Below are positions 243-31,146 of a DNA stretch of 64,000 nt, one piece after another. Positions within the stretch are counted from its first letter, which is position 1. Every line of letters starts with the position of its first letter. The stretch lies in NCBI GenBank assembly GCA_964459725.1, contig CAYWNT010000007.1, positions 7,843 to 71,842 on the forward strand, read 5' to 3'. The notes under the pieces were generated by a model. The model saw only the letters and a list, made by a program, of their open reading frames with translations. It was not told where the DNA came from and made no database searches. The translations under genes were made by a program, and so were the position numbers. The DNA is from an uncultured Gammaproteobacteria bacterium. Its GTDB lineage: Bacteria; Patescibacteriota; Patescibacteriia; Patescibacteriales; UBA12075.

Positions 243-2414
243 TTATTTTTTATAAATACGTAAACTATTTCCAATAATGGTTATGTCTGAAAAGCTCATA
301 GCAATAGCCCCAATCATCGGATTTACTAAACCCATCATGGCCAGTGGAATAGCAAGGACGTTATAGAAGAAGGCCCAGAATAAATTTTGTTTGATTATGT
401 TGAATGTTTTTCTTGATAGTTTTATAGCCTCCACTACTTTTAAGGGGTTGTCTTTAATTATAATTATATCACCTGATTCTTTGGCTATGTCAGAGCCAGA
501 TCCAAAGGCAATACCTAGATTTGATTGAACTAGCGACGGAGCATCGTTTATTCCATCACCAACGAATACAGTTCTTTTGTTGTTTTCTTGTAACTTCTTT
601 ACTTCCTTCTGTTTGTCCTGGGGCAAGACTTCAGCAATGTATTTTTCTATCCCTATTTTTAGCGCTGTGTTTTTGGTTGTGACTTCATTGTCACCACTCA
701 TCATAATTACTGGTAGTTTAAGAAGTTTTAATTTTTCAATTGCCTCCTCTGCAGTTTCTTTTATTTCGTCTGTTATTTTTAGATATCCAATTGTATTTCC
801 GGTATGGACTAGAAAGACAATTGTGCCACCAGTTTCTTCTTTTGAGATTATTTCTTTGGCCCACTTAGTGTCAATTTTAAATTTTTCTAGTAATGTAATA
901 TTTCCTAGTAATAAATCCACATTATGTTGAGCGCATTTTCCTGTTATTCCTTTTCCGATTACTTCTTCGAAGTTATTTATCCCTATTTTTATAGCTTTAA
1001 TTTTTTCTCCGTAATTTGTTATTGCTTTTGAGATTGGATGCTTGGAGTTTAGTGATAAAGAGTGGGCAATTTTAATGATCTGGTTGCTTTTAAAGTTGAA
1101 TTTTGGATTAACGACAATATCTTGTACTTTTGGTTCGCCCTTAGTTAGTGTTCCAGTTTTGTCAAAAATAACAGTATCAATATTTTTTGCTTTTTCAAAA
1201 CTTTCACCATTTTTAATTAGTATTCCATTCTGGGCGCCAACACCGGTTCCAATCATGATGGCTATAGGGGTTGCAATGCCAAGAGCGCAAGGACAAGAAA
1301 TGATTAGTACCGCTACAGCATTTATTAGACTAACAGAAAAATCATTAGTTTTTATATACCACCCGATAAAAGTAAGGATAGAAATAGTAACCACAGTCGG
1401 CACAAAAATACTTGATATTTTATCTGCTAGTTTTTGGATCGGCGCCTTGAAGCTTTGAGCTTCTTCTACAGTTCGAATTATTTGAGCTAGCATTGTCTCG
1501 TTTTGTGTTTTTGTGACCCGGGCTTGGATAACTCCATTTATATTCAGTGTTGCACCAAATATTTTAGAGTTTATGCTTTTCGATACTGGCAAACTTTCAC
1601 CAGTCAGCATAGATTCATTGATTGCTGACTCTCCTTCTATCACTACAGCATCAAGTGGAATTTTTTCTCCAGGACGAACTATAAAAATTTCTCCGATTTT
1701 TATTTCATCTATCTCTTTTTCTTTTTCCTTCCCGTTCGGTAAGATAATGTTGGCTTTCTTTACACCAAGTTCCATGAGCTTTTCCATGGCTCTACTTGCT
1801 TTATTAGTAGACTTCAATTCCAAATATTTTCCTAATAAAATCAGCGAAGTTATGGCCGCAGCACTTTCAAAATAAATATGACCCCCATAAAACATTGCCC
1901 AAAGACTGTAAAAGTAAGCTGACAGCGTACCAAGAGAAATCAAAGTGTCCATGTTTGTTTGAAGTCTTTTGATTTGCTCGAAGGCGCTAGAATGAAATTG
2001 CCAACCAGTTATAAAAACTACTAGAAATGCCAAGTCGTGCTGTATCCAGTTTGTGATACTAACTCCCCATAATTCTCCAGGCACTTCCCATTTCCAAAAC
2101 ATGCGTAAAAATATCGGGATAGTCATTAGTATTGCGGCGATAACTTTTAATCTTTGTGTTCGCGCAGCCTTTTCCGCAGCCTTTTTATTTTTAACCTCGT
2201 CTCTCTTTTCTTCTATTTGAAATCCAGTGCTCTGTATTATTTTTTTTATTTCCTCTAGACTTATTTCGTTTTCGTTGAATTCTACGCTGGCTTTCTTGGT
2301 AGCGAAATTTACTTCTGCTTTTTTTATCTTGTCATATTTTTCAAGAGCTAGTTTAATATTGGTGGAGCAGCTAGCGCAATGCATTCCGGATATTTTTATT
2401 GTTTCTTTTTTCAT
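243..2414 (-). CDS. copA: copper-translocating P1B-type ATPase
   Basis: 723 aa. N-terminal HMA motif GMHCASCS, membrane CPC site (SCPCALGIATP), DKTGTLT phosphorylation motif, GDGINDAP hinge. Confidence 0.95.
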   Translation of the reverse strand: MKKETIKISGMHCASCSTNIKLALEKYDKIKKAEVNFATKKASVEFNENEISLEEIKKIIQSTGFQIEEKRDEVKNKKAAEKAARTQRLKVIAAILMTIPIFLRMFWKWEVPGELWGVSITNWIQHDLAFLVVFITGWQFHSSAFEQIKRLQTNMDTLISLGTLSAYFYSLWAMFYGGHIYFESAAAITSLILLGKYLELKSTNKASRAMEKLMELGVKKANIILPNGKEKEKEIDEIKIGEIFIVRPGEKIPLDAVVIEGESAINESMLTGESLPVSKSINSKIFGATLNINGVIQARVTKTQNETMLAQIIRTVEEAQSFKAPIQKLADKISSIFVPTVVTISILTFIGWYIKTNDFSVSLINAVAVLIISCPCALGIATPIAIMIGTGVGAQNGILIKNGESFEKAKNIDTVIFDKTGTLTKGEPKVQDIVVNPKFNFKSNQIIKIAHSLSLNSKHPISKAITNYGEKIKAIKIGINNFEEVIGKGITGKCAQHNVDLLLGNITLLEKFKIDTKWAKEIISKEETGGTIVFLVHTGNTIGYLKITDEIKETAEEAIEKLKLLKLPVIMMSGDNEVTTKNTALKIGIEKYIAEVLPQDKQKEVKKLQENNKRTVFVGDGINDAPSLVQSNLGIAFGSGSDIAKESGDIIIIKDNPLKVVEAIKLSRKTFNIIKQNLFWAFFYNVLAIPLAMMGLVNPMIGAIAMSFSDITIIGNSLRIYKK

Positions 2415-3215: not shown

Positions 3216-4718
3216 TTAGTTTGATTTTATTCTAGTTCCACAACCGCAAGTTGAGGAATCTTTGCTTCCACCGCAAGTAGGACTACCACAAGATCCGTTA
3301 CATCCTCCTTGCTTCTCTGGCATGACAATATCTTCCCTTGAGAGCCCTTTGGATGATTTGCGGCCGTCATCAGTTACAATAAATTTCCCCCAGACCATTT
3401 TCATCCAACAGCTAAATTTTAGATCACCAAGCTCAGTTGGAGTAAATTCTATTACTGTTAGCTTTTTGTCTATTTTTTTCTTTATGGTGCCATCGGGGTG
3501 ATATAGAAATATTTCATTGGTACATCCGGTAGCTCCTTTATCATTTATAATCCATCTTACAGGGATATCTTTTTTCAAATACAGCACATTAGGACTATAT
3601 CCTCTGTAGGTTATATCCATTTCAACGGTTTGGAACTCCTCGACATCCCCGGTCACCAGAAATTCTGTTTTACTTTGAGCGCTTACCGGGATTAGGGAAC
3701 TCAAACCATATCCAAAATTAATAAGTCCACGATTGAACATAAACAAACCAAGGACTATTACTAAAACACCGGAAAATTTCATGACCTGTTTTATTTTAGT
3801 GTGTCCAATAATAGTTACAAAATTTCCAAAACCAAACATTAGCGGAATAGTGCCCAGAGAATAGAGAAACATGGCCATAGCTCCGTTAAAGATACTTCCG
3901 GAAGTCAGGGCAAAGAGCTGCATGGCTTGTAATGGACCACAAGGCATAAAGCCGGTTAGTAGCCCAATAATAAAGGGTCCTTTGGGATTTTGATTTTGTT
4001 TGTTTCTGTATAAAAACTTAGCAATGAATTCGGGGGTTCTTAGTTTTATTTTTTTTAACCAACTGTGGTTAGACAAAAGGGAAGCACCCATTAGGATCAT
4101 AAAAACGGAAGCTAGTAGTATAATTATTCCAGAGAAATTTGGGTTAATTCCAAAAAATGAACCAAAACCTCCTAAAATCGCACCAATTGCTGTATAAGAT
4201 ATTAGTCTAGCGATGTTGTATTGTAGGTGAGGAAGCTGTGAAGATGGGAAAGAGAAGCGAGATTTTTTTTCTCGGTTTTTTTCTATGTTGCTTGCTGAAT
4301 AAGTTATTACCAATCCGCCGCACATACCTATGCAATGAAAGCTAGCTAAAACTCCAATTAGAAATATTATTGAAAAGCTGACACTTTGTTCGTTTAACGC
4401 TGACATTAAATTGAATAATTCATATCTTTGTATAATGAAATATCCAATCAGGAAAACAATTAATAAGACCCCCAATATCAAATAAGACTTTGTTTTCTTT
4501 TGTCCGGTGTCATTTTTTGTTGCGATATTATATCCCAGTCTTTCGACTGTCTCGTAGATTTCTTTTTTTTCGCCATTTGTTTCTACTGAGGCTTCGCCTG
4601 TTAGATAGTTAACGTTTGCGTTGTTAATGTTTTTGTCTAATTTTAATTCCTCTTCAATTAGTGTTTTGCAGGCCTTGCAGTGAATACCAGTTATTTTAAA
4701 ATTGAATTTTTTAGGCAT
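3216..4718 (-). CDS. HMA domain / DsbD_2 (UreH-like, often annotated TauE/SafE) membrane protein with C-terminal cupredoxin-like domain and Cys-rich tail
   Basis: 500 aa. GIHCKACK HMA motif, membrane motifs HCIGMCGG and MPCGPLQA, C-terminal beta domain (FSCWMKMVWGKF), tail GGCNGSCGSPTCGG..CGCG. Confidence 0.8.
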   Translation of the reverse strand: MPKKFNFKITGIHCKACKTLIEEELKLDKNINNANVNYLTGEASVETNGEKKEIYETVERLGYNIATKNDTGQKKTKSYLILGVLLIVFLIGYFIIQRYELFNLMSALNEQSVSFSIIFLIGVLASFHCIGMCGGLVITYSASNIEKNREKKSRFSFPSSQLPHLQYNIARLISYTAIGAILGGFGSFFGINPNFSGIIILLASVFMILMGASLLSNHSWLKKIKLRTPEFIAKFLYRNKQNQNPKGPFIIGLLTGFMPCGPLQAMQLFALTSGSIFNGAMAMFLYSLGTIPLMFGFGNFVTIIGHTKIKQVMKFSGVLVIVLGLFMFNRGLINFGYGLSSLIPVSAQSKTEFLVTGDVEEFQTVEMDITYRGYSPNVLYLKKDIPVRWIINDKGATGCTNEIFLYHPDGTIKKKIDKKLTVIEFTPTELGDLKFSCWMKMVWGKFIVTDDGRKSSKGLSREDIVMPEKQGGCNGSCGSPTCGGSKDSSTCGCGTRIKSN

Positions 4719-11868: not shown

Positions 11869-13866
11869 ATGAATGCTAATAATTTAAAGAGACTCGTTTT
11901 GCTTGTGTTTTTGATATTTGTTGTTTTTTTGCTTGGAAAGTGTATCCCGGAGAATAACAAGAACGACTTTGATATTTTCTATGGATTAACCGATCGAAGT
12001 TCATGGGCAGAATTAAGTCGTTATGCTTTTGAGAGCGGCCAAAATCTGGAGGAGGCAAAATCTACTAACTTAAAATGGGCCAATAATCTTTTTTTAAATT
12101 ATTTATTGATTGATGACTTCCAGATTGCAATGATCGACAGTAAAGACGAAGAAGCAGCGGAAGAATGTTTGAACGAAGAAAGTCCAATAATAATAATTTA
12201 TTTAGATACAACAAATGAGGCGAATGTAATTGAGGATGTTATTTTTAATGAATATTTTTATAAAAGTATCCAAGTAGTATTAGAGGTTTATGGAAAAAAA
12301 GGAATAATTTTTTATGAAGAATTAGGGACTATTATTCTCAATAAAAATGGTTCAAGTGTATGGAAAGCAGAGAGATATTCATTTGAAAAAGCAAAAGAAA
12401 TAATGAATTCGCCAGAGTTTATTGAAAAAATTGAATTTGAAAGCAATAAATACGGCTATAGCATTGATCAATTACGATCTTTTAAGTCAAATGTTTTATA
12501 TTTTGCTTCGGTGGTTGATTATATAATAAGTTTTTATGAGCATGATACGAATGAATTGCTTTTTAATACTTACTATAGCGAAATTGCCGAACCAGTTTAT
12601 AGAATATTAGATAAGTTGAAAATATTAAGTGCAAACTTGTATATATATCCTGAACTGGGAGCATCTATTTATGTTCAAGACCAAAAACAAATTAATTATA
12701 CAATGTTGCATTTTGCTAAAAACAGTGTTATTGCATTTCTAATTATTTTGATCTTGTTTTTGGTGTATCACATTGTTAATAGAGATCTTTGGTATTTTGT
12801 TGAGAAAGAACTTCACGACAATGGGCTTACGCTGACTAAAAAAAATGTCTTTAGACTTTTTCGTAGTAACTGGAGAATTATATTTTTTCCATATAGCAAA
12901 GATAAAATGATTGAGATTGCAAGATCTGAATGTCAAAAATTATTAGAAACCATTCAATTAAATAATATAATAGATGAGTCAAAAGATGCCTGGAGAAAGC
13001 TTGAGGAGTTATTGGCTGAGAATAAAAGTGAATTAGGTCATCTGGAGAAATACTACAACATTATCAACAAAAAGAGTGAACGTAATTTGAGTAGATTAAA
13101 AAATGCCTTATTGCAACTCTTGGCTGGAGTAAATAAATATTCTGCTAGAAGTGGCGAGAAAGTGCAAGAGTACAGAATTGAGACAGCAAGAGAGGCGCCG
13201 AAGAAAAGCAAAAAACGGCTTCCTCCCGTTGTTGAATCTAGAGAAAGATTGATGTCTTTGTTATCTGGTTATGAAATAGGAATATTTAATGATTGGAAAA
13301 AATCGGATTTGGATAATTTGTCTTTTGTTGTGCTGTATTTGCCAAAGGTTGATCCTGGGGCGATAAATTTATTACTGAACAGGGAGGACTTGTTGAGCCT
13401 GATAGATGAATCCAATATTTTTTTCAAGGCAGTAATGCTCAGAGATCGACAGATTATAAAAGAAGAACTTGGCATTAGTAAAAAAGTAAAAAAACAGGAA
13501 CTAGTCGAAAGTAGAGACGAAGCCGAGATAGAATATATCTTACCGGATGATTTGAAAGTTTTTGTTTTTGTTGGTAAGCGTCTTCTTCGAAAAAAAGAGG
13601 CGTTATGCAGGGCGATTCTTGAAATGGGTGCGAAGGAATGTGAATGGATCGATGCCTCAGAGATAAATGCCGTAAACGCAGCTATTAAGTCTAATTCTAG
13701 TGGCAATTGTTTGTACGTTACAACCATGTCACTTAAACATGGAGCGCTTTATTTACTTAGGAGTAAGAAGGTGAATATTATTACTACTAAGACTGTAGAT
13801 CCTGATCGGTTTAAACAAGAAGTTTATGAAGAGTACGGTAAAATAAGCAATGGAGGAATATTATGA
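11869..13866 (+). CDS. hypothetical two-TM protein: about 260-aa external domain, coiled-coil cytoplasmic region, C-terminal alpha/beta (DUF2325/SLOG-like?) domain
   Basis: 665 aa with AGGAG SD. TM1 about residues 8-24, TM2 about residues 285-305. C-terminal pattern: VFVFVG..GAKECEWID..CLYVTTMSLKHGALYLL..KVNIITTKT. Confidence 0.7.
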   Translation: MNANNLKRLVLLVFLIFVVFLLGKCIPENNKNDFDIFYGLTDRSSWAELSRYAFESGQNLEEAKSTNLKWANNLFLNYLLIDDFQIAMIDSKDEEAAEECLNEESPIIIIYLDTTNEANVIEDVIFNEYFYKSIQVVLEVYGKKGIIFYEELGTIILNKNGSSVWKAERYSFEKAKEIMNSPEFIEKIEFESNKYGYSIDQLRSFKSNVLYFASVVDYIISFYEHDTNELLFNTYYSEIAEPVYRILDKLKILSANLYIYPELGASIYVQDQKQINYTMLHFAKNSVIAFLIILILFLVYHIVNRDLWYFVEKELHDNGLTLTKKNVFRLFRSNWRIIFFPYSKDKMIEIARSECQKLLETIQLNNIIDESKDAWRKLEELLAENKSELGHLEKYYNIINKKSERNLSRLKNALLQLLAGVNKYSARSGEKVQEYRIETAREAPKKSKKRLPPVVESRERLMSLLSGYEIGIFNDWKKSDLDNLSFVVLYLPKVDPGAINLLLNREDLLSLIDESNIFFKAVMLRDRQIIKEELGISKKVKKQELVESRDEAEIEYILPDDLKVFVFVGKRLLRKKEALCRAILEMGAKECEWIDASEINAVNAAIKSNSSGNCLYVTTMSLKHGALYLLRSKKVNIITTKTVDPDRFKQEVYEEYGKISNGGIL

Positions 13867-16233: not shown

Positions 16234-16497
16234 TTAGTTTTTAATAATTTTTATCGGATGTCTGTATTTAATTAGGTTTATTTTTTTCTGCTTAGTCCAT
16301 CCTTTGATTTATTTTTCACGTTTCATAGCTTCTTCTTTGCTCTTATGATTTTCGTAATAAACAAGTTTTACGGGAAGTAGGTGAGAAGTAAATCTAACTT
16401 CACTTCTTTGATGTTGTTCTAATCTTCTTTTTAACTTATCAGTGAAACCTGTATAGAATAAATTATTTTTACAAAGTAGGATGTATACTTTATACAT
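16234..16497 (-). pseudogene. GIY-YIG nuclease-family (UPF0213-like) gene interrupted by an in-frame TAA at 16309-16311
   Basis: MYKVYILLCKNNLFYTGFTDKLKRRLEQH..EEAMKREK, then stop, then in the same frame IKGWTKQKKINLIKYRHPIKIIKN. Confidence 0.6.
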
Positions 16498-16539
16498 AGC
16501 AATTGAATTGTTGTTGTTATTTTATTATAACAAAAATCA

Positions 16540-16760
16540 GAGTTTTATGCTTGCACTGAGTTTATTGAACGTGCCTGTACTGAGCGAGGAGGTTTTTTAA
16601 CATTTTTTGCCCATTCGGCAAGCTCAGGGCCACTTCGATTCTTTGTTAATCTAAAATCAAAGTATTGTGCTTGCACAAGCCCTTCGGCAAGCTCAGGACC
16701 ACTTCGACTTCTATGTCAAAATAGCTAGTGCCTGCACTGAGCGAGGAGGGTGTTTAACGT
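16540..16760. repeat. cluster of dispersed direct repeats downstream of ssrA (module X 16571-16601 and 16728-16758; module Y 16614-16638 and 16683-16707)
   Basis: X is gtgcctgYactgagcgaggaggKtKtttaac. Y is ttcggcaagctcaggRccacttcga. tgcttgcac also occurs twice. Confidence 0.8.
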
Positions 16761-16785
16761 CAGTTAAATAACCGACGAGTCGAAG

Positions 16786-17170
16786 TGGAGATGGCGGGAG
16801 TTGAACCCGCGTGTAACAAGTTTTTATTAATACATTTACAAGAGTAGTTTAGTTTGTTGTTTCACTGCTTGCGTAAAAACTAAACAAAATCGCAAACAGC
16901 TAGTTTTCTAAGTTTAAATACAAAAGCGAAAACGAGTTTTGTATCGAACCTGATAATATTACACCCACGTCAGGTTATCAGGTCATCACCTGGGTGGATG
17001 GCTGTGGCTAATGTTAAGCTACAACTGGTGCAAAAGCAGGCATGCTGAAAGCAGCTTTTACTTTTGCGAAAGTGTTTTTTGCACTTATTATTTTGAGTAT
17101 GATTTGAGTGGTACTCACCCACTTCTTGAATATTAACAAAGAATACAAGTTATCGAATCCCTGCATCCCC
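16786..17170 (-). ncRNA. ssrA: tmRNA (ssrA), one-piece
   Basis: 5' GGGGATGCAGGGATTCGA and 3' GCGGGTTCAACTCCCGCCATCTCCA tRNA-like ends. Candidate tag ORF 17082..17014: AKNTFAKVKAAFSMPAFAPVVA then stop. Lies directly downstream of smpB. Confidence 0.85.
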
Positions 17171-18867: not shown

Positions 18868-19071
18868 GAGGAATTTAGAAATTTTTTTGGCTATTGCTAA
18901 AAATTTTTGTTTTGTATATAATACAAATAGTTGAGAAATCATTTCTTAACTTTTTTGTTTGAATAAAAAAGTTAAGACATGAAACCTATATCATCGTGAG
19001 TGGAACAGAAGCGGGCCTGTCCCTGCCTACCGGCAGGCAGGCGCCGAAGCTCCATCTTCGATGGAGCATAG

Positions 19072-19143
19072 GCGGGTATGGTATAATGGCTATTACATCA
19101 CCTTGCCAAGGTGGAAATACGGGTCCGATTCCCGTTACCCGCT
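19072..19143 (+). tRNA. tRNA-Gly (anticodon GCC)
   Basis: gcgggtatggtataatggctattacatcaccTTGCCAAggtggaaatacgggtccgattcccgttacccgct. Discriminator U; no encoded CCA. Confidence 0.88.
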
Positions 19144-19421
19144 CAAAAATAAAGCAGTCCCGAATGGGGCTGTTTTATTTTTGATGTGTGGTGGCGGGTG
19201 AGGAATCGTGATGACCAGCAAGAAATAAAGATTAACTAAAAAATGAACAAAGAGACTATAAAATTTTTACGTATTTTATGAGTAGGTTTTTCGGGAATCG
19301 AATTAATTCCCGCCCGCCCCGCCTATGAACGAAGTGAATTTTGCGGGGTTACCCGCTCATATAAAGAACGTTTGAATAAACGTTCTTTTTTTGTTATGTT
19401 TTAGATATAAATTAATAAAAT

Positions 19422-21448: not shown

Positions 21449-21520
21449 GGTCCCTTCGTCTAGTGGTTAGGACACCAGGTTTTCATCCTGGTAACAGGGG
21501 TTCGATTCCCCTAGGGATCA
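21449..21520 (+). tRNA. tRNA-Glu (anticodon TTC)
   Basis: ggtcccttcgtctagtggttaggacaccaggTTTTCATcctggtaacaggggttcgattcccctagggatca. Confidence 0.9.
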
Positions 21521-21893
21521 CAAAGAAAGAAATCTCACGAAAGTGGGATTTTTTCTTTGTTATTTTTAGTAGGAGGAGAATCCCGATGATCAACTTTGTA
21601 AATATCCAAAAAACTTAAATATACACCTAATTATAATTAAAACAAACAACCAAAAAAGGCAGAGAGCCTCGATGATCAACTTTAAAATATCTATTAAACT
21701 AAAATATATATCTATTCACAATCAGAACAGATTACCAAAAAAGAAATGATCGAAAACGCCCTGGCTTTTCGATTTTTACCCCGATGAATATCGGGGCCCC
21801 CAGGGATCACAAATAAAAAACTTCTGACAATTCTTTGAATTATCAGAAGTTTGTTTAGTTGCGGTACTTTAGTTTTATTTCTAACCTAAATTA

Positions 21894-23208: not shown

Positions 23209-23724
23209 TTATCTTTTTTGGAACTCAATTCTTTTATTGGTTCCGATGATTTCAAATCCATTCTTTGAATCTTCGGTGTACCCAAGAATTTTTGTTGGAT
23301 TTCGTGAATGTGTTCGATAAACATTTAAATGGATAAATGTTCTCGAATCGGGTAGGGTTTTTTTTATTACATAAACCGTGGCCACAATCTTTTTTCCAAA
23401 ATCCTCTTTTTTAATACCATAGTAGTGCACATTTAGACGAATTCCTGAAAAAGGTTTCCCACTTCTCCAGTATTCTTCAACAATTTCACCATTAGGCAGT
23501 AATCTTGTTGGAAAAAAAGTCATAGTAGGATTATCATTGTCAATCCTGACTGACACCAGCTCTTCAATATGAAGAGTCTCATATGTCGGTGACTCTTCGA
23601 TTTCAAAAGGCTTTGTGTTTTCTTTCTCTTTCTTTTTCTTGCCCTCTGTCTTTGGGACGAGCTCCAAAACTCTACCCAGACCTTGGAAACCTTTCAACCT
23701 GTAAGTTGCTTTATCCGTATTCAT
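23209..23724 (-). CDS. hypothetical protein
   Basis: AAGGGG SD before ATG 23724. The promoter (TTGACA 23801-23806, TATATT 23778-23783) overlaps the longer track ORF, so the internal start is favoured. Confidence 0.6.
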   Translation of the reverse strand: MNTDKATYRLKGFQGLGRVLELVPKTEGKKKKEKENTKPFEIEESPTYETLHIEELVSVRIDNDNPTMTFFPTRLLPNGEIVEEYWRSGKPFSGIRLNVHYYGIKKEDFGKKIVATVYVIKKTLPDSRTFIHLNVYRTHSRNPTKILGYTEDSKNGFEIIGTNKRIEFQKR

Positions 23725-23872
23725 AGTGATCACCCCTTGTTGTGGATTATAAAAAAAGCAAAATTGGTTAATATGTGAATATAGCATAAAAATAGATACT
23801 TGTCAATAGTAAGATTTTTCTAGTTTTTAAATAAAGAACTTTTGTATTATAATAGAAGTGTAAGAATTTATT

Positions 23873-24586
23873 ATGCAAAAAAAGAAAATATTTTTATTTT
23901 TATTTGTATTAATAGCGCTGGCTGGCCTGGTTTGTGTTTTTTGTTTTTTGAAAGACAAGAAAGAAGAAATCGAGGCTCCTATTCTTGGGGTGGAGAAAAC
24001 TTTTGATGAAATGGTTTTGGATTTTAATGCTGTTTACAAAAAAGCATTGATTTATACTAGTGAGGGGAAGCAAGAATCAGTAGCTGAAATAGAAAAGGCT
24101 CTAGCGCTCTGGCTAGAAGTGGAAAGAAAATTCTCTTCTGAATTGCCAAGGGAATATCAGAAGACTGAAAGCTGGGAAGATAAGCTCAATAATATTTCTG
24201 ATTTAGGAGGACGAGCCTTAAGCTTTGCCAAAGAAGGGGAGCTTGAGAAATCTTATAAAGAACTTGAGTCTATAAGACGTGCGTTAAAAAATATCAGATT
24301 GGAAAATGGAATTTCTAATATCAGTGATCTGTTTTTAGATTTGAATGATGTGATAATTGTTGTAGATGGTGCAGAAAGTAAAAGGGCAGCTCTAGAAAGC
24401 TTTGGAGGGCTGAAAATGATATTTACCAAACTAAAAGAGATAAAAAGGGATGAAAATTATCAGAAGGCACTAGAAGAAATTGGTGATATAATTAGTGGAA
24501 TGGAAAATTCAACAGAAAAGACATTTCCAAAGCATCAAAAGAAATTAAGACCGGCTTTTATTAAAATTTATTTAGACTTTGGTTAG
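23873..24586 (+). CDS. hypothetical N-terminally anchored helical protein
   Basis: 237 aa with an N-terminal TM (IFLFLFVLIALAGLVCVFCFL). Confidence 0.6.
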   Translation: MQKKKIFLFLFVLIALAGLVCVFCFLKDKKEEIEAPILGVEKTFDEMVLDFNAVYKKALIYTSEGKQESVAEIEKALALWLEVERKFSSELPREYQKTESWEDKLNNISDLGGRALSFAKEGELEKSYKELESIRRALKNIRLENGISNISDLFLDLNDVIIVVDGAESKRAALESFGGLKMIFTKLKEIKRDENYQKALEEIGDIISGMENSTEKTFPKHQKKLRPAFIKIYLDFG

Positions 24587-24786: not shown

Positions 24787-26133
24787 TTGAATATTGCAGC
24801 AACGATTTTGGTTTATTTCATACGATTGTTACTATTCATGAAAAAGGTTTTTCTTTTTCTTTTTTTTATTGTTTATCATCCAACGTACAAGATGCTCAGA
24901 TTCATCTTTTATAAGTTTGTGGTTAAGGGGTATAGTTATTATTTGATTGGTCTCAAAAAGATTGGGTGGCATAAGCTCAGAAAGAGTTATTTTAAATTTA
25001 TTTTTAATCAAAAATTAGTTCATCTTTTAGTCATAGTGCTAACCGTCTTGGCTATTTTTGTAAACCTAACATCAAAAACACTTGCAGATAACCATACTGA
25101 TAATATTCAGAAAACTATTTTGGCAGAGCTGATCGAGAGTGAGTTTGGGGAACTGGAAGAAGACGAGCAATTAATTATTGAAAGTTTTGATAAAGAGTCA
25201 ACCATATCTACAGTTCAGCAATCCTATCTGGATAATTTGTCGAGTTTCAGACCACAGCCGAAGGTGACCATAGGCGAAGACGGCGAAGAGATTGAAACAC
25301 AGCCTGCTATAACTCAGGAAGGATCAAGCATTGTGAGAAGAGACAGTGCAACTACTAGAATTTCAAAAAAGCCTAGAGAAAAAACAATTTCATACACAAT
25401 CCTGCCAGGCGACACCATAAGTACAATTGCTGAAGAATTTGAGATTAGTGTTAGCACAATTCTATGGGAAAATAACTTGAGTGCATATAGCATAATTAGG
25501 CCTGGAAAAAAACTCGATATTTTACCTGTTTCTGGAATAAGTCACACAGTCAAAAAGGGCGAGAACATCAGTTATGTTGCAAAGAAGTATAAAATTGATG
25601 AAGCAAAAATAATAGAGACTAATAAACTCGGTAAGTCTGCTAAGCTAGCTGTGAACCAAAAAATTATAATTCCGAATGGTAGAAAGATAACTCCAAAATA
25701 TGTTCCAAAAACTTATACTGGAATTGGAGCTATTAAGAATTTGGTCAAATCTCCTAGTGCGAAACCGGTGCTAGGTAATAAAATGAATTGGCCGACAGTA
25801 GGCAGAAGAATAACTCAGTATTATTCATGGAGACATCATGGACTAGACATCGCCAACAAGACAGGCACACCACTTTACGCTGCTGACTCCGGGACAGTTG
25901 AGATGGTTGGATGGGGCAGGGGTTACGGAAACCAGGTTGTTATTGATCATGGAGGTGGAAAGAAAACTAGATACGCTCATTGCTCGAAATTTTATGTAAG
26001 CAGGGGTGAAAAAGTAACCAAGGGACAAACCATTGCGGCCATGGGAAATACTGGTTGGTCGACTGGACCTCATATTCATTTCGAAGTTATAATAAATGGC
26101 AGAAAATATAACCCATTAAATTATATTAAATAA
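24787..26133 (+). CDS. LysM-domain M23 family metallopeptidase (start uncertain: TTG 24787 or ATG 24838)
   Basis: Two LysM repeats (YTILPGDTISTIA.., HTVKKGENISYVA..). M23 motifs HHGLDIA and GNTGWSTGPHIHFEV. Confidence 0.9.
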   Translation: MNIAATILVYFIRLLLFMKKVFLFLFFIVYHPTYKMLRFIFYKFVVKGYSYYLIGLKKIGWHKLRKSYFKFIFNQKLVHLLVIVLTVLAIFVNLTSKTLADNHTDNIQKTILAELIESEFGELEEDEQLIIESFDKESTISTVQQSYLDNLSSFRPQPKVTIGEDGEEIETQPAITQEGSSIVRRDSATTRISKKPREKTISYTILPGDTISTIAEEFEISVSTILWENNLSAYSIIRPGKKLDILPVSGISHTVKKGENISYVAKKYKIDEAKIIETNKLGKSAKLAVNQKIIIPNGRKITPKYVPKTYTGIGAIKNLVKSPSAKPVLGNKMNWPTVGRRITQYYSWRHHGLDIANKTGTPLYAADSGTVEMVGWGRGYGNQVVIDHGGGKKTRYAHCSKFYVSRGEKVTKGQTIAAMGNTGWSTGPHIHFEVIINGRKYNPLNYIK

Positions 26134-26154: not shown

Positions 26155-26412
26155 ATGATTCTAAGAATTTTACTTGGCATAGTAGTGGCTGGTGCCGGCT
26201 ATTTATTTGTAGCAAAAACAGAATGGTTTTTACGAAATTTTGGACGAATTGCCTTCTTTGACAAATATTTAGGGACAAGTGGCGGTTCAAGATTGGGTTA
26301 TAAATTGCTGGGTGTTTTTATTTTATTTATCGGTATAATGATCGCTACAGGTTCTATTGAAGGTTTTATAATGTGGGTTTTAGGTCCGTTGATTCGAGCT
26401 GGTGGTGTATAA
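26155..26412 (+). CDS. small membrane protein
   Basis: 85 aa with three hydrophobic segments. Confidence 0.5.
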   Translation: MILRILLGIVVAGAGYLFVAKTEWFLRNFGRIAFFDKYLGTSGGSRLGYKLLGVFILFIGIMIATGSIEGFIMWVLGPLIRAGGV

Positions 26413-26545
26413 ACAGAAAGGGTATTGCATTTTTTTTGAAAATGATATAATATCTATATCAGATGGCAAAAGCTGTCATTTTTTATTTTAAAATTTTGTT
26501 GAAGCTTGATGTGAGGGTTTACCCTCCGAAGCTTTAGCGAAGGAG

Positions 26546-26619
26546 GGGCCATTAGCTCAGTTGGCTAGAGCACCTGCTTTGCAAGCAGGGGGTCAAGAGT
26601 TCGAGTCTCTTATGGTCCA
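26546..26619 (+). tRNA. tRNA-Ala (anticodon TGC) with a G3:U70 identity pair
   Basis: gggccattagctcagttggctagagcacctgcTTTGCAAgcagggggtcaagagttcgagtctcttatggtcca. Confidence 0.9.
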
Positions 26620-26786
26620 CAAAATAAAGAGTCGCCTTTTCAGGCGATTTTTTGTTTGGTGCATAAGAGGCGAAGAACTCTTGAGGTGGTAGGAATAGAA
26701 ATAAAGAGTAAAAGTTGCTTGAAGAACCAAAACAAGAAGAATAAGAAAAACTAAGCCGATTGGAGTGTTGGGGCCTGCCCCAGTAA

Positions 26787-26837
26787 GAGTCTCTTATGGT
26801 CCACAAAATAAAGAGTCGCCTTTTCAGGCGATTTTTT
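26787..26837 (+). repeat. exact 51-bp copy of the tRNA-Ala 3' end plus its terminator (original at 26603-26653)
   Basis: gagtctcttatggtccacaaaataaagagtcgccttttcaggcgatttttt occurs twice, 184 bp apart. Confidence 0.9.
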
Positions 26838-26930
26838 ATTTTGGAAACAATATTGATCTTTTAAAAAAAATATGCTAATATAATAATACAACATTTTAAC
26901 CTATTTTTAATAATTTTCTAATCAAAAAAT

Positions 26931-27398
26931 ATGGGAGAAAATACAATCACTAGAAAAGAATTATTAGAAGCTATTGATTCTGCTATTAAACCTCTAAAAG
27001 AGGAAATGAAAAAAATTACCAAAAAGGATAATCTGTCTATTTGTTTTCCTGTGGAAATTTTTTATGAAAATTTAAAAAAGTGTCTAAGTGGTAAAATAGA
27101 GGATCCGTCAGATATTCCTTTTGACATGGATAGTTTTATAAAGTTTGTTTCTAAGTGCGGATTTTTCAAAAGAGGCTCACTAAAGGAGATTAGTGACAAG
27201 AGGTATCAAATACAAATTGAGGGTTGCGATAGAATTAGCGAGTGTACTCATCCTAGATTAAATCCAGAGAACAAGGTTTGCCCCCTGGCATTAGTTGCTG
27301 GAGCATTTCTAAAATTTAATTATCCAAATTCGCATGTAATTGTAGAGCCATCTAAATTTACACCGCAAGATTCAATTACCAATATTGATATAAGCTGA
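26931..27398 (+). CDS. hypothetical protein
   Basis: 155 aa. The C-terminal Cys pattern (CDRISECTHP..VCPLA) is only vaguely V4R-like. Confidence 0.55.
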   Translation: MGENTITRKELLEAIDSAIKPLKEEMKKITKKDNLSICFPVEIFYENLKKCLSGKIEDPSDIPFDMDSFIKFVSKCGFFKRGSLKEISDKRYQIQIEGCDRISECTHPRLNPENKVCPLALVAGAFLKFNYPNSHVIVEPSKFTPQDSITNIDIS

Positions 27399-29488: not shown

Positions 29489-29576
29489 TGCTTTTGTTCA
29501 TCCCCGGAGTCTTAATAAAGACTCTGGGGATTTTTTTATTTAAAAATAATAATCTTAAATTTGTATACAATATACA

Positions 29577-29623
29577 AAAAACAGCCTCATCCGAGACTGT
29601 TTTTATATTGTGCGCCCAGCAGG
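29577..29623 (-). repeat. 47-bp near-identical copy of the tRNA-Lys 3' end (13 nt) plus its terminator (original about 29775-29820)
   Basis: aaaacagcctcatYcgagactgYttttatattgtgcgcccagcagg occurs twice with two mismatches. Confidence 0.85.
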
Positions 29624-29807
29624 CCCGCCTGCGCCAAAAGGCTTCGGCGGGTAAAATTCTCACTTCAGGTTTTTTATGGTTGGTGATAATTGTTGCGCTT
29701 GTTTTGATAATTATTATTTTAGCTCTCCTTACTTGTTGTAAATGCAGGTTCGAATTTGCTAAAACACACAATATAAAACAGCCTCATTCGAGACTGCTTT
29801 TATATTG

Positions 29808-29880
29808 TGCGCCCAGCAGGATTCGAACCTGCGACCATTTGCTTAAGAGGCAACTGCTCTACCAACTGAGCTATGGGCGC
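29808..29880 (-). tRNA. tRNA-Lys (anticodon CTT)
   Basis: Reverse complement: gcgcccatagctcagttggtagagcagttgcCTCTTAAgcaaatggtcgcaggttcgaatcctgctgggcgca. Confidence 0.9.
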
Positions 29881-30089: not shown

Positions 30090-30213
30090 GTGCACCCGGA
30101 AGCCTGCCTGCCGGTAGGCAGGGACTCGCCCCGGTATACACCAGGGTGCTTCGCAAACCCTCAACCTCTTGGTCCGATCCCGAGTACTCGGGATTATCCA
30201 GTATTATAGCTAG
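30090..30213 (-). pseudogene. degenerate partial copy of tRNA-Arg (D-arm to 3' end) carrying three inserted hairpin/palindrome segments
   Basis: Shares gtgcacccggaag (13 nt) and aaccctcaacctcttggtccga (22 nt) with the intact gene. Inserts include the palindrome tcccgagtactcggga (30178-30193) and the 24-nt element at 30102-30125. Confidence 0.7.
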
Positions 30214-30287
30214 TGCACCCGGAAGGACTCGAACCCTCAACCTCTTGGTCCGAAGCCAAGCGCTCTATCCAGTTGAGCTACAAGTGC
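30214..30287 (-). tRNA. tRNA-Arg (anticodon TCG)
   Basis: Reverse complement: gcacttgtagctcaactggatagagcgcttggCTTCGGAccaagaggttgagggttcgagtccttccgggtgca. Two G-U pairs in the acceptor stem. Confidence 0.85.
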
Positions 30288-30498
30288 GAAACGAAACAGT
30301 TGCTTCTAGCTCCGGTAGAACCGGAGAGCTACAAGTGCGAATTTTCGTATGCAAAAAACTCCTCTACGGAGTTCTTTTTGATAATAACATATGAGTTAAA
30401 ATAAATCAAGACAGATTGACATTTTTCGCAATTTATGTATAATTAGATAAAATTGTTCATTTTATTCTTTTGTATTTACATAAAAAAGGAGAGAAATT

Positions 30499-31146
30499 AT
30501 GGAAATTAATAGCTTTAACCCAGAAGAGGCAATCATTTGGTTGATGATTTGTATTTTAATGTTGCTTGTTTGTTTGGTTTCTTATTTAGTTACCGATCGT
30601 TTTAAGAAGTTGAAGCGTTATATTGTAGTTTCAAGTCTTATGGTAGTATTTTTTTGTACGTCGATTTTGGGACTTAGTATTTTTGTGCCAAATAAGTCTA
30701 TGATTATTAGTAATGATTTACAAGAAATTGTTCATGTTAACCAGGGTTCTGTTTTTGCGATTTTTAGAAATAATGAGATTTTGGAAAATTGTAAAATCGT
30801 AAGTTTTAAAAAAGGGATTATTGATAAAATTTTTATGAGTTTTAATCCTATTTCAGTAAATCCGAAAGTGAGAGAAATTTCATATAGTGTTGAACTAATG
30901 AGCATCGAGTCTCCCGAAGAAGCGCTTAATAGGTTGAAATTTGAGAAAGAAGTTCGGCCTTTGAAGGACCATCTAAAATTTTGGTTGTATGAATTTCATG
31001 AAAAACACGGAAAGGAAATCGCCGAATTTTACAATCCGGTTAATGAAAAGCAACAACAGAAATTTTCTTCGTTGTTAAAAGATTTCATTTCACCTCATTT
31101 AGAGAAAACTGGTGTTGAGATCTCCAACGTTCGTTTCAATTTATAG
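30499..31146 (+). CDS. hypothetical two-TM protein
   Basis: 215 aa with AAGGAGAG SD and two N-terminal TM helices. Confidence 0.6.
   Translation: MEINSFNPEEAIIWLMICILMLLVCLVSYLVTDRFKKLKRYIVVSSLMVVFFCTSILGLSIFVPNKSMIISNDLQEIVHVNQGSVFAIFRNNEILENCKIVSFKKGIIDKIFMSFNPISVNPKVREISYSVELMSIESPEEALNRLKFEKEVRPLKDHLKFWLYEFHEKHGKEIAEFYNPVNEKQQQKFSSLLKDFISPHLEKTGVEISNVRFNL

Follow-up and report, generated by a model that had tools for sequence, protein, structure and literature searches.

The DNA examined here (the window) is a 64-kb stretch of contig CAYWNT010000007.1, part of a Candidatus Falkowbacteria chromosome (candidate phyla radiation, CPR) with ~34% G+C and ordinary chromosomal genes. A tRNA-Ala gene in this stretch is followed at short distance by a second copy of its own 3' end and terminator, and this distal block of 51 nucleotides (nt) is a dead, displaced or duplicated tRNA-Ala 3' end. 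The relic probably has no function and can be removed by recombination between the 51-nt repeats. Related genomes hold cassettes, associated with tRNA genes and encoding a small GIY-YIG nuclease, that keep a working tRNA and leave a scarred resident copy, and they also hold shorter, nuclease-less versions at the same loci, which come and go between relatives. Whether the Ala block is itself a nuclease-less scar or a non-autonomous derivative of this tRNA-gene-invading cassette family is, in our judgement, evenly balanced, while the weaker claim, that it is a non-functional scar of insertion or duplication left by a tRNA-specific process other than integrase action, is considerably more likely.

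The duplicated tRNA-Ala end

The elements of the locus, all on the forward strand, are as follows.

26513-26547, forward: tRNA-Ala leader with a pair of overlapping GC hairpins, GAGGGTTTACCCTC and CCCTCCGAAGCTTTAGCGAAGGAGGG, the latter extending into tRNA nt 1-2
26546-26620, forward: functional tRNA-Ala(UGC) with G3:U70, CCA unencoded (ARAGORN; Rfam tRNA model, 69.3 bits)
26603-26653, forward: proximal copy of the 51-nt repeat with terminator 1 (stem 26632-26647, T-run 26648-26653)
26642-26684, forward: right arm of an imperfect palindrome, consisting of inverted decayed trailer, acceptor 3' strand and T-arm (left arm 26593-26637)
26685-26769, forward: unique purine-rich filler, non-coding, without homologue
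26770-26781, forward: junction GC hairpin GGGGCCTGCCCC, just upstream of the distal copy
26782-26837, forward: dead distal tRNA end with terminator 2 (stem 26816-26831)

The exact 51-nt repeat described in the original prediction is confirmed: positions 26603-26653 and 26787-26837 are identical, and with two mismatches allowed the repeat reaches 60 nt (26598-26657 versus 26782-26841), where ~5e-20 chance pairs of 51-mers are expected in the window. It comprises the last 17-18 nt of the tRNA (T-loop end, T-stem 3' strand, acceptor 3' strand and discriminator), the trailer, and the terminator hairpin TCGCCTTTTCAGGCGA with its T-run. The distal end opens with AGTAAG, a remnant of the variable loop and the T-stem 5' strand, and the repeat copy follows. 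Its T-loop is absent, as had been noted, since AAGAG directly abuts TCTCTT at 26785-26795, and the GC hairpin placed just upstream of the distal copy is GGGGCCTGCCCC at 26770-26781. The distal copy was not recognised as a tRNA by Rfam, even at E <= 5.

The description of the spacer as purine-rich and non-coding likewise holds. The interval 26654-26769 is 70% purine, within the top 2% of segments of that length, and the sole open reading frame (ORF) across it is a mechanical antisense ORF of 84 aa that overlaps the tRNA. The DNA between the two copies amounts to 133 nt, all non-coding, in agreement with the earlier statement that neither integrase nor cargo lies between them. The full spacer (26654-26769) gave no blastn similarity to related loci and is single-copy.

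A feature that the original prediction overlooked is a decayed inverted copy of the T-arm and acceptor 3' strand behind each proximal terminator. The tRNA 3' half and this inverted copy form an imperfect palindrome, with arms of 43-52 nt and the terminator loop at its centre. The alignment score of the inverted copy at Ala has z = 5.5, with none of 200 shuffles as good, and that at the tRNA-Lys gene of the window has z = 5.6. Identity is ~80% for the inverted copy versus 100% between the direct Ala copies, from which it follows that the inverted copy is older than the direct repeat. A reading of the spacer as a decayed tandem 5' part of the tRNA was rejected, as a significant alignment was obtained only with the tRNA 3' half in reverse complement.

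This geometry brings in an explanation without any mobile element, namely a local accident of replication or repair: after a break or a stalled fork at the palindromic terminator, fold-back and template switching would give direct, inverted and again direct copies of the tRNA 3' half, as in a duplication-inversion-duplication (DUP-INV-DUP) or an unequal exchange like that of E. coli tyrT. It accords with a 51-nt identity that takes in trailer and terminator, with an inverted copy that directly adjoins the terminator palindrome at four loci (Ala, Lys, Gly and Glu), with inverted and direct copies that match the local tRNA allele both in the window and in the related locus L086, and with a unique spacer. 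The difference in identity between inverted and direct copies, however, means that they are not of one age, and the accident leaves unexplained the hairpin families common to junctions of different tRNAs and species, the foreign alleles in relatives, the recurrence at five of the seven tRNAs of the window and the nuclease genes found between copies. We consider it unlikely.

Dead ends and nuclease cassettes in related genomes

An M23 peptidase gene (24787-26133) lies upstream of tRNA-Ala in the window. Its relatives, 43-65% identical, occur in metagenome-assembled genomes labelled Candidatus Falkowbacteria, Parcubacteria or Patescibacteria, and there too tRNA-Ala stands behind the same peptidase and a small ORF. 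The sample comprises 110 related loci (~1.1 Mb; the tRNA-Ala loci are L001-L106) together with the window, with 170 tRNAs in all. A tRNA was scored as carrying an own-end copy if its last 13 nt recurred, with <=2 mismatches, <=800 nt downstream.

By this measure 24 of the 170 tRNAs carry a copy of their own end. Control searches gave 0.7 with shuffled queries, 2.45 with an end from a different isoacceptor and 3 with reverse complements. Dead ends are common in the lineage, and each is specific to the isoacceptor of its own tRNA. A GC hairpin abuts the distal copy in all 24 cases, and the break mostly lies inside the T-loop after TTC, or else a hairpin replaces the whole T-arm. The gap between copies is <=320 nt in every case (24/24), and no 16-nt copy of a tRNA end lies >800 nt away in any locus of the 1.1 Mb. 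The largest inserts at such sites are cassettes of ~300-480 nt with a GIY-YIG ORF. Among 76 tRNA-Ala genes the last 13 nt occur as 30 alleles, with compensated stem changes; CCA is encoded by some tRNA-Ala alleles (L010, L073, L029, L033, L035) and not by most.

Empty and occupied sites were compared in other lineages, because no close relative of the window genome was found. Instead of sharing a conserved arrangement with non-polymorphic occupancy, close relatives differ at the tRNA-Ala locus, and the comparison of relatives proposed with the original prediction yields occupied and empty sites in L017 versus L016/L014, L086 versus L083, and L010 versus L013. L017 holds a 62-nt block inside the T-loop (in the order new 3' end, TAT, GGTTC, two GC hairpins) where L016 and L014, whose neighbouring peptidase is 95-96% identical, are empty; T67 of L016/L014 is kept in the L017 distal copy, while the working gene of L017 shows G6:C67, a compensated pair. 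In L086 there is an 87-nt block like that of the window, with inverted copy, GC hairpin and a direct copy lacking the T-loop, and L083 lacks this block although its tRNA is identical. L010 (occupied) and L013 (empty) have peptidases 97% identical and working tRNA-Ala genes only 73% identical. The order in L010 is a foreign leader and tRNA-Ala, a frameshifted GIY-YIG ORF, and the L013-type gene from nt 8 to its end, in which the sole change relative to the L013 gene from nt 8 on is a palindrome in place of AGCGCCTGCT.

The L018 allele sits in the dead copy of L020, and the dead-copy allele also differs from the working-gene allele in L030, L038/L084, L063, L069, L074 and L100. In several relatives the resident allele is found in the dead copy and a different one in the working gene. 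The Ala copies of the window are identical to each other, with no allele difference. L025 and L075 were rejected as a further empty/occupied pair, for L075 has its own, different pseudo-copy; the 'empty' calls accordingly under-count occupancy. Downstream of tRNA-Ile in L080 (~2050-2340, reverse strand), a second, degenerate short module (TTTGTGCT..GATGGTGAATGAACCATCCAGTTGGTGTGGGGCTTAGCC) follows the dead end and terminator. It has no tRNA end, and modules can therefore pile up in tandem.

The differences in occupancy speak for an origin by insertion rather than for a conserved feature of the transcript, such as a tRNA-like handle, a module for processing or termination, or a decoy for tRNA-directed enzymes. 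Such a role would suit the very stable predicted RNA fold of 26621-26845 (z = -6.2), in which the inverted copy is predicted to pair with the distal CTCTTATGGTCC, as well as the perfect conservation of 51 nt and the weakness of terminator 1, which makes read-through plausible. Yet presence and absence differ among close relatives, spacers are unrelated across loci and species, the layout varies in length and content, and the stability of the fold follows from the repeats and two terminators. Rfam offers no family either: at the gathering threshold the matches in the window are tRNAs and transfer-messenger RNA (tmRNA) only, at E <= 5 nothing meaningful appears in spacers or dead copies, and the sole match in the Ala spacer or distal copy, a rimP leader (24.4 bits against a gathering threshold of 47, E 2.9), is at chance level. 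We regard a functional transcript feature as very improbable.

The sole type of gene found between such copies encodes a protein of 85-90 aa that consists of a GIY-YIG catalytic domain only (PF01541). Its ORF lies downstream of tRNA-Ala at the orthologous site in L010 (frameshifted), L020 and L065; upstream of tRNA-Ala, with a displaced 5' fragment, in L090; and upstream of tRNA-Gly in L033, where a full-length pseudo-tRNA with hairpin scars stands on one side of it and the working gene on the other. When the L020 protein was searched against a database, 26 homologues were returned. In all six with context DNA (L111-L116) the gene begins 0-51 nt behind a tRNA (two Val, one Asn, one Met and two Arg), and a scarred pseudo-tRNA of the same isoacceptor stands behind the nuclease in five of them (L112-L116) and upstream of the working gene in L111; the context of a seventh homologue, without DNA, is the peptidase/tRNA-Ala locus. 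The pseudo-tRNAs are scarred by a TCCCGA(N2-6)TCGGGA palindrome in place of the anticodon-stem 5' strand, by GC hairpins in the T-loop, or by both, and the junction in L115 (two hairpins, then TTCGAATCC..3' end) is of the window type. Complete cassettes, with a working tRNA, a GIY-YIG ORF and a pseudo-tRNA scarred by the palindrome and/or T-loop hairpins, exist, some at the orthologous tRNA-Ala site and others at Val, Asn, Met, Arg and Gly genes. The pseudo-tRNAs of the window Arg locus and of L100 combine the cassette palindrome with T-loop hairpins, without a nuclease gene, and so connect the nuclease-bearing and nuclease-less types.

Scarred pseudo-tRNAs also stand upstream of the working gene in L113 (~1780-1875), L111 (~1880-1986), L020 (~4040-4120) and L115 (~1790-1860), together with a duplicated 18-30-nt leader in L113 and L111, which suggests that one site was invaded more than once.

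Among the options raised by the original prediction, an insertional origin of the non-functional 3' ends is upheld by the polymorphic occupancy; tyrosine integrases as its agent are not. On that account the repeats would be attL/attR scars of integrase-borne elements whose interior was deleted. The direct repeat does start in the T-loop, a known site of integrase crossover (Williams reportedly described crossover in the tRNA T-loop in 2002), and the working gene is restored upstream with the displaced end downstream. However, a Pfam scan of 34 ORFs of the window found no recombinase or integrase domain, there is no integrase between the copies in the 24 cases, and the genes enclosed are GIY-YIG nucleases only. 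The gaps are uniformly short, without any repeat pair >800 nt apart, and distal T-loops are disrupted by inserted hairpins. Integrase scars are the least probable of the explanations considered. The alternative phrased as very small non-autonomous elements or deletion scars stands. Unequal crossing-over of the tyrT type fits poorly: only 51 nt are repeated, and the junction hairpins and the foreign alleles of relatives are left unexplained.

Other tRNA loci and GC hairpins

The copies of the tRNA's own end claimed at the Gly, Glu, Lys and Arg genes are all present, with a layout like that at Ala, which brings the total to five of the seven tRNAs of the window; the tRNA-Leu and tRNA-Met genes in the window have no own-end copy.

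19072-19392, forward: Gly locus, with tRNA-Gly 19072-19144 and terminator 19153-19182
~19183-19215, forward: Gly locus, inverted copy
19292-19312 and 19317-19348, forward: Gly locus, hairpins
19349-19359, forward: Gly locus, distal end TTACCCGCTCA, behind hairpin 19317-19348
19364-19392, forward: Gly locus, second terminator, unlike the first
21449-21852, forward: Glu locus, with tRNA-Glu 21449-21521 and terminator 21530-21554
~21555-21591 and 21779-21796, forward: Glu locus, inverted copy and hairpin, respectively
21797-21809, forward: Glu locus, distal end CCCCCAGGGATCA with 1 mismatch; second terminator 21821-21852
29576-29880, reverse: Lys locus, with tRNA-Lys 29807-29880 and terminator 29773-29801
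29744-29759 and 29624-29651, reverse: Lys locus, inverted T-arm copy and hairpin, respectively
29601-29623 and 29576-29600, reverse: Lys locus, distal copy and second terminator, respectively
30091-30338, reverse: Arg locus, nested, with functional tRNA-Arg 30213-30287
30326-30338, reverse: Arg locus, 5' fragment with hairpin 30311-30325
30091-30213, reverse: Arg locus, nearly whole pseudo-tRNA-Arg directly behind the functional gene

The Gly and Glu copies look older or foreign, since the two terminators at each locus differ. The Glu spacer has an internal direct repeat, CGATGATCAACTTT, at 21584-21597 and 21670-21683, inside similar units of ~25 nt, and a third, weaker copy of it lies near 21745. 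In pseudo-tRNA-Arg the palindrome TCCCGAGTACTCGGGA (30178-30193) replaces the D-stem 3' strand and the anticodon-stem 5' strand, and the T-loop and T-stem hold two GC hairpins (30129-30148 and 30103-30121). The same palindrome occupies the equal tRNA position in the nuclease-bearing cassettes of L020 and L065, with close variants in L111-L114.

The sole nuclease gene of the cassette type in the window lies downstream of the tmRNA gene (16785-17170), and L012 has an orthologous arrangement in intact form behind its tmRNA.

16237-16497, reverse: small GIY-YIG gene with an in-frame TAA (tblastn; Pfam PF01541, E = 2e-13)

The window gene is probably a pseudogene, given the in-frame TAA. From the tmRNA 3' end to this gene runs a GC-rich motif array of ~290 nt (16498-16784, reverse strand), with the motifs TTCGACTCGTCGG, CCTCCTCGCTCAGTGCAGGCAC (twice) and CCTGAGCTTGCCGAA(G/T)GGGC (twice); AGTCGAAGTGG in the array is complementary to the junction of tmRNA end and trailer. 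Motifs of this type also occur in L012 (12964-13134), L007 (11808-11870) and L004 (2303-2370), without an Rfam match, and in L007 the same trailer start and motif stand behind tRNA-Ala. They loosely recall ribozymes of the hepatitis delta virus (HDV)-like kind (CCUCCUCGC, GCGAAUGGGA).

The junction hairpins fall into families common to different species and tRNA types. The GGCGTGGGGCTTGCCCC family is found at Ala, Ile and Val junctions (L062, L009, L001 and, for Ile and Val, L080), with a variant at the window Ala locus (GGGGCCTGCCCC) and in L086; CCCCGGTGTATACCGGGG occurs in the window Arg locus and at tRNA-Leu in L063, and CCCCGCC..GTGA..GCGGGG in the window Gly locus and at tRNA-Ala in L025 and L100. 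About half of the 16 strong GC hairpins of the 64-kb window sit in the few kb of tRNA loci, and over all loci the density is 1.37/kb within <=350 nt of a tRNA versus 0.55/kb elsewhere (2.5-fold). A genome-wide intergenic scatter of GC palindromes, like that of repetitive extragenic palindromic (REP) sequences or miniature inverted-repeat transposable elements (MITEs), was not seen, the hairpins being concentrated at tRNA loci.

Some hairpins are dispersed on their own account. The Ala leader hairpin CCCTCC-GAAGCTTTAGCGAA-GGAGGG (26522-26547), directly 5' of tRNA-Ala, is a dispersed element with copies in L114 (1768-1791; 24/24, inverted), L080 (2764-2786), L027/L102 (9767-9784), L034 (2863-2882) and L007, which lie in both orientations and in other species, several of them adjoining tRNAs. 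Related loops (GAAGCTTYAGCGAA) occur at tRNA-Gly in L033 and L111, where the tRNA's own 5' end forms the 3' arm. The hairpin GTCCCTGCCTACCGGCAGGCAGGC is found at three sites, the Gly leader (19022-19041), the dead Arg T-stem (30103-30121, reverse strand) and L101 (~985-1005), the last being the tRNA-Ala leader of another species. Phage DNA was tried as a carrier of the cassettes and rejected: a scan of viral contigs with the palindrome GTCCCGAGNNCTCGGGATT gave three isolated hairpins, with no tRNA or GIY-YIG gene near them. The cassette palindrome GTCCCGAGCACTCGGGATT stands alone in the intergenic DNA between uncharacterised phage ORFs in L119 (6329-6347) and L120 (2824-2842), and there is no tRNA or GIY-YIG gene near it in either.

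These observations bear on a further explanation, in which the GC hairpins, single or paired, are small mobile palindromes in their own right, comparable to REP or palindrome-associated transposable elements (PATE) or to mitochondrial GC clusters, that insert next to GGTTC in T-loops. They would be visible only in redundant ends, insertion into a working gene being lethal, and the GIY-YIG genes would be bystanders or the source of the redundant copies. Hairpins do stand exactly after TTC in L017, L030, L038, L027 and the window Arg copy, and the same ones recur in leaders and in both orientations. The T-loops of pseudo-tRNAs are free of hairpins in L020, L065, L112 and L010 and hit in L113-L115, which suggests secondary insertion, and a near-identical palindrome stands alone in phage contigs. 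Against this, no transposase of the type needed turned up in the window, whose ordinary intergenic DNA is without dispersed hairpins, and the left edge of the dead copy is <= ~7 nt from the hairpin in most short cases, which argues for joint origin. Mobile hairpins by themselves are a distinctly unlikely explanation.

Elsewhere the window encodes SmpB (beside tmRNA), Fpg, guanylate kinase, RuvB, serine hydroxymethyltransferase (SHMT) and glycogen enzymes. Six ORFs, one of 665 aa, have no Pfam match (E <= 0.001).

11869-13866: ORF without Pfam match
23209-23787: ORF without Pfam match
23873-24586: ORF without Pfam match
26155-26412: ORF without Pfam match
26931-27398: ORF without Pfam match
30499-31146: ORF without Pfam match

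Possible mechanism, precedents and implications

If the Ala block derives from the cassette family, its history might be as follows. A nuclease would cut the tRNA gene at a conserved position, and the left break end would be extended on a homologous template, either a cassette or the sister chromosome, through the tRNA 3' end and terminator. Rejoining of the old right-hand end, from the T-loop on, would place it downstream and create the direct repeat, with the GC hairpin or palindrome at the junction disabling the leftover copy. The nuclease gene may have decayed later, or may never have been present and acted in trans. The perfect identity of the Ala copies, terminator included, could reflect repair from an identical template or a very recent event.

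Several points weigh against derivation from the cassettes. Scans of genomes and metagenomes found no close relative of the window genome, the best full-length peptidase identity being ~65%. The 100% identity of the Ala copies, trailer and terminator included, fits local duplication or sister repair better than foreign import, and the inverted copy needs an extra step of fold-back or template switching at the terminator. The 133-nt Ala gap is too short for an intact nuclease gene, and no such gene or remnant was detected in the Ala spacer by hmmsearch against six-frame translations (best E = 1.6); a profile built from 32 GIY-YIG proteins, searched against all spacers in six-frame translation, scored on the true genes alone, and tblastn agreed. 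The nucleases consist of the catalytic domain only, and judged from their sequences their cutting, target and homing role are putative. Some working tRNAs adjacent to a nuclease have the resident allele at the palindrome site, which leaves the escape of the host gene unexplained, and the conservation of the junction hairpins hints that the hairpins may be a separate mobile component.

A more far-reaching version, which we hold to be doubtful, treats the GIY-YIG gene and the adjacent working tRNA as a selfish unit of a natural 'cleave-and-rescue' kind. Resident tRNA genes would be destroyed by the nuclease at conserved positions, in the anticodon stem and T-loop, leaving corpses scarred by palindromes or hairpins, and the tRNA copy linked to the nuclease gene would take over the essential function. 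Units of this kind and their nuclease-less miniatures would spread between CPR genomes via tRNA homology alone, and their spread would be what makes tRNA stem alleles turn over unusually fast.

The Ala locus is a relic. Among known systems, the closest kind is the endonuclease ORF of fungal mitochondria, and the closest precedent for the enzyme is SegB of phages. The fungal mORFs, known from atp6 of Allomyces macrogynus and from atp6, atp9, cox2 and nad3 of Glomus, create gene hybrids: when an endonuclease ORF (of the GIY-YIG type in atp9) inserts, it brings along a foreign 3' end that replaces that of the host gene (PMC3630166). In the part of that account which cites Paquin et al. 1994, the native 3' end is pushed downstream and survives there as a dead copy, still matching close relatives. 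The same AT-rich mitochondrial genomes hold mobile GC-rich double-hairpin elements, according to the passage of PMC3787672 that cites Paquin et al. 2000. L010 versus L013 and L020 versus L018 follow the logic of the displaced native end. Here, in contrast, a chromosomal tRNA gene of a bacterium is the target, the nuclease is no more than a catalytic domain of 85-90 aa, the dead copy bears a conserved palindrome or T-loop hairpins as its mark, and the Ala locus of the window lacks any ORF.

SegB of phages T4 and T6 is a free-standing GIY-YIG homing endonuclease encoded in a tRNA gene cluster, and it cuts tRNA-containing DNA (PMC2330249). It drives recombination-dependent tandem amplification of tRNA and segB and is often associated with tRNAs (PMC13096335). 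The likeness lies in a GIY-YIG nuclease gene amid tRNA genes; SegB, however, is phage-borne, and the accounts of it mention neither hairpin-scarred pseudo-tRNA fragments nor replacement of a resident chromosomal gene. The enzyme is presumably also about twice as long as the nuclease described here, with a C-terminal DNA-binding part.

Islands of tyrosine integrases resemble the present loci in that the insert lies between direct repeats of the 3' part of the tRNA and the incoming copy restores the gene. They differ in that here there is neither integrase nor cargo, gaps are <=320 nt, the displaced T-loop is disrupted, and the repeat of the window continues for 34 nt beyond the tRNA, taking in the terminator. 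The distal repeats of E. coli tyrT are said to be units of 178 bp that each end in the tRNA-Tyr 3' end. As at the Ala locus, the tRNA 3' end recurs behind the gene, ~180 bp apart, but at tyrT the whole unit is in tandem, whereas here only 51 nt are repeated around a unique spacer, an inverted copy and hairpins at the junction are present as well, and many tRNAs show the arrangement. Theta ribozymes (minimal HDV-like ribozymes) abut tRNA 3' ends in phages (PMC10879173) and are likewise GC-rich structured elements directly at tRNA 3' ends. No ribozyme model matched here, however, and the Ala hairpin precedes the dead end instead of following the live one; theta ribozymes are at most a lead for the tmRNA trailer motifs. 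The group I introns of Patescibacteria tRNAs (PMC13011429) were set aside as unrelated, as they sit in anticodon loops.

In the literature searched, coverage of which is incomplete, no description of small cassettes of GIY-YIG gene and pseudo-tRNA in bacterial chromosomes was found; within those bounds the principle is known from fungal mitochondria and T-even phages and undescribed for chromosomal tRNA genes of bacteria. For annotation, fragments of this kind should not be taken for integrase att sites or genomic islands. The GIY-YIG protein of 85-90 aa is, by its sequence, a candidate compact nuclease specific for a site or a structure. If the cassette origin is true, the single-copy tRNA genes of tiny CPR genomes would be a battleground for minimal selfish nuclease cassettes that carry or regenerate their own copy of the target gene, which would account for the dead tRNA fragments, the clutter of GC hairpins that surrounds tRNA genes in the AT-rich genomes of CPR bacteria, and the fast turnover of tRNA stem sequences with compensated changes.

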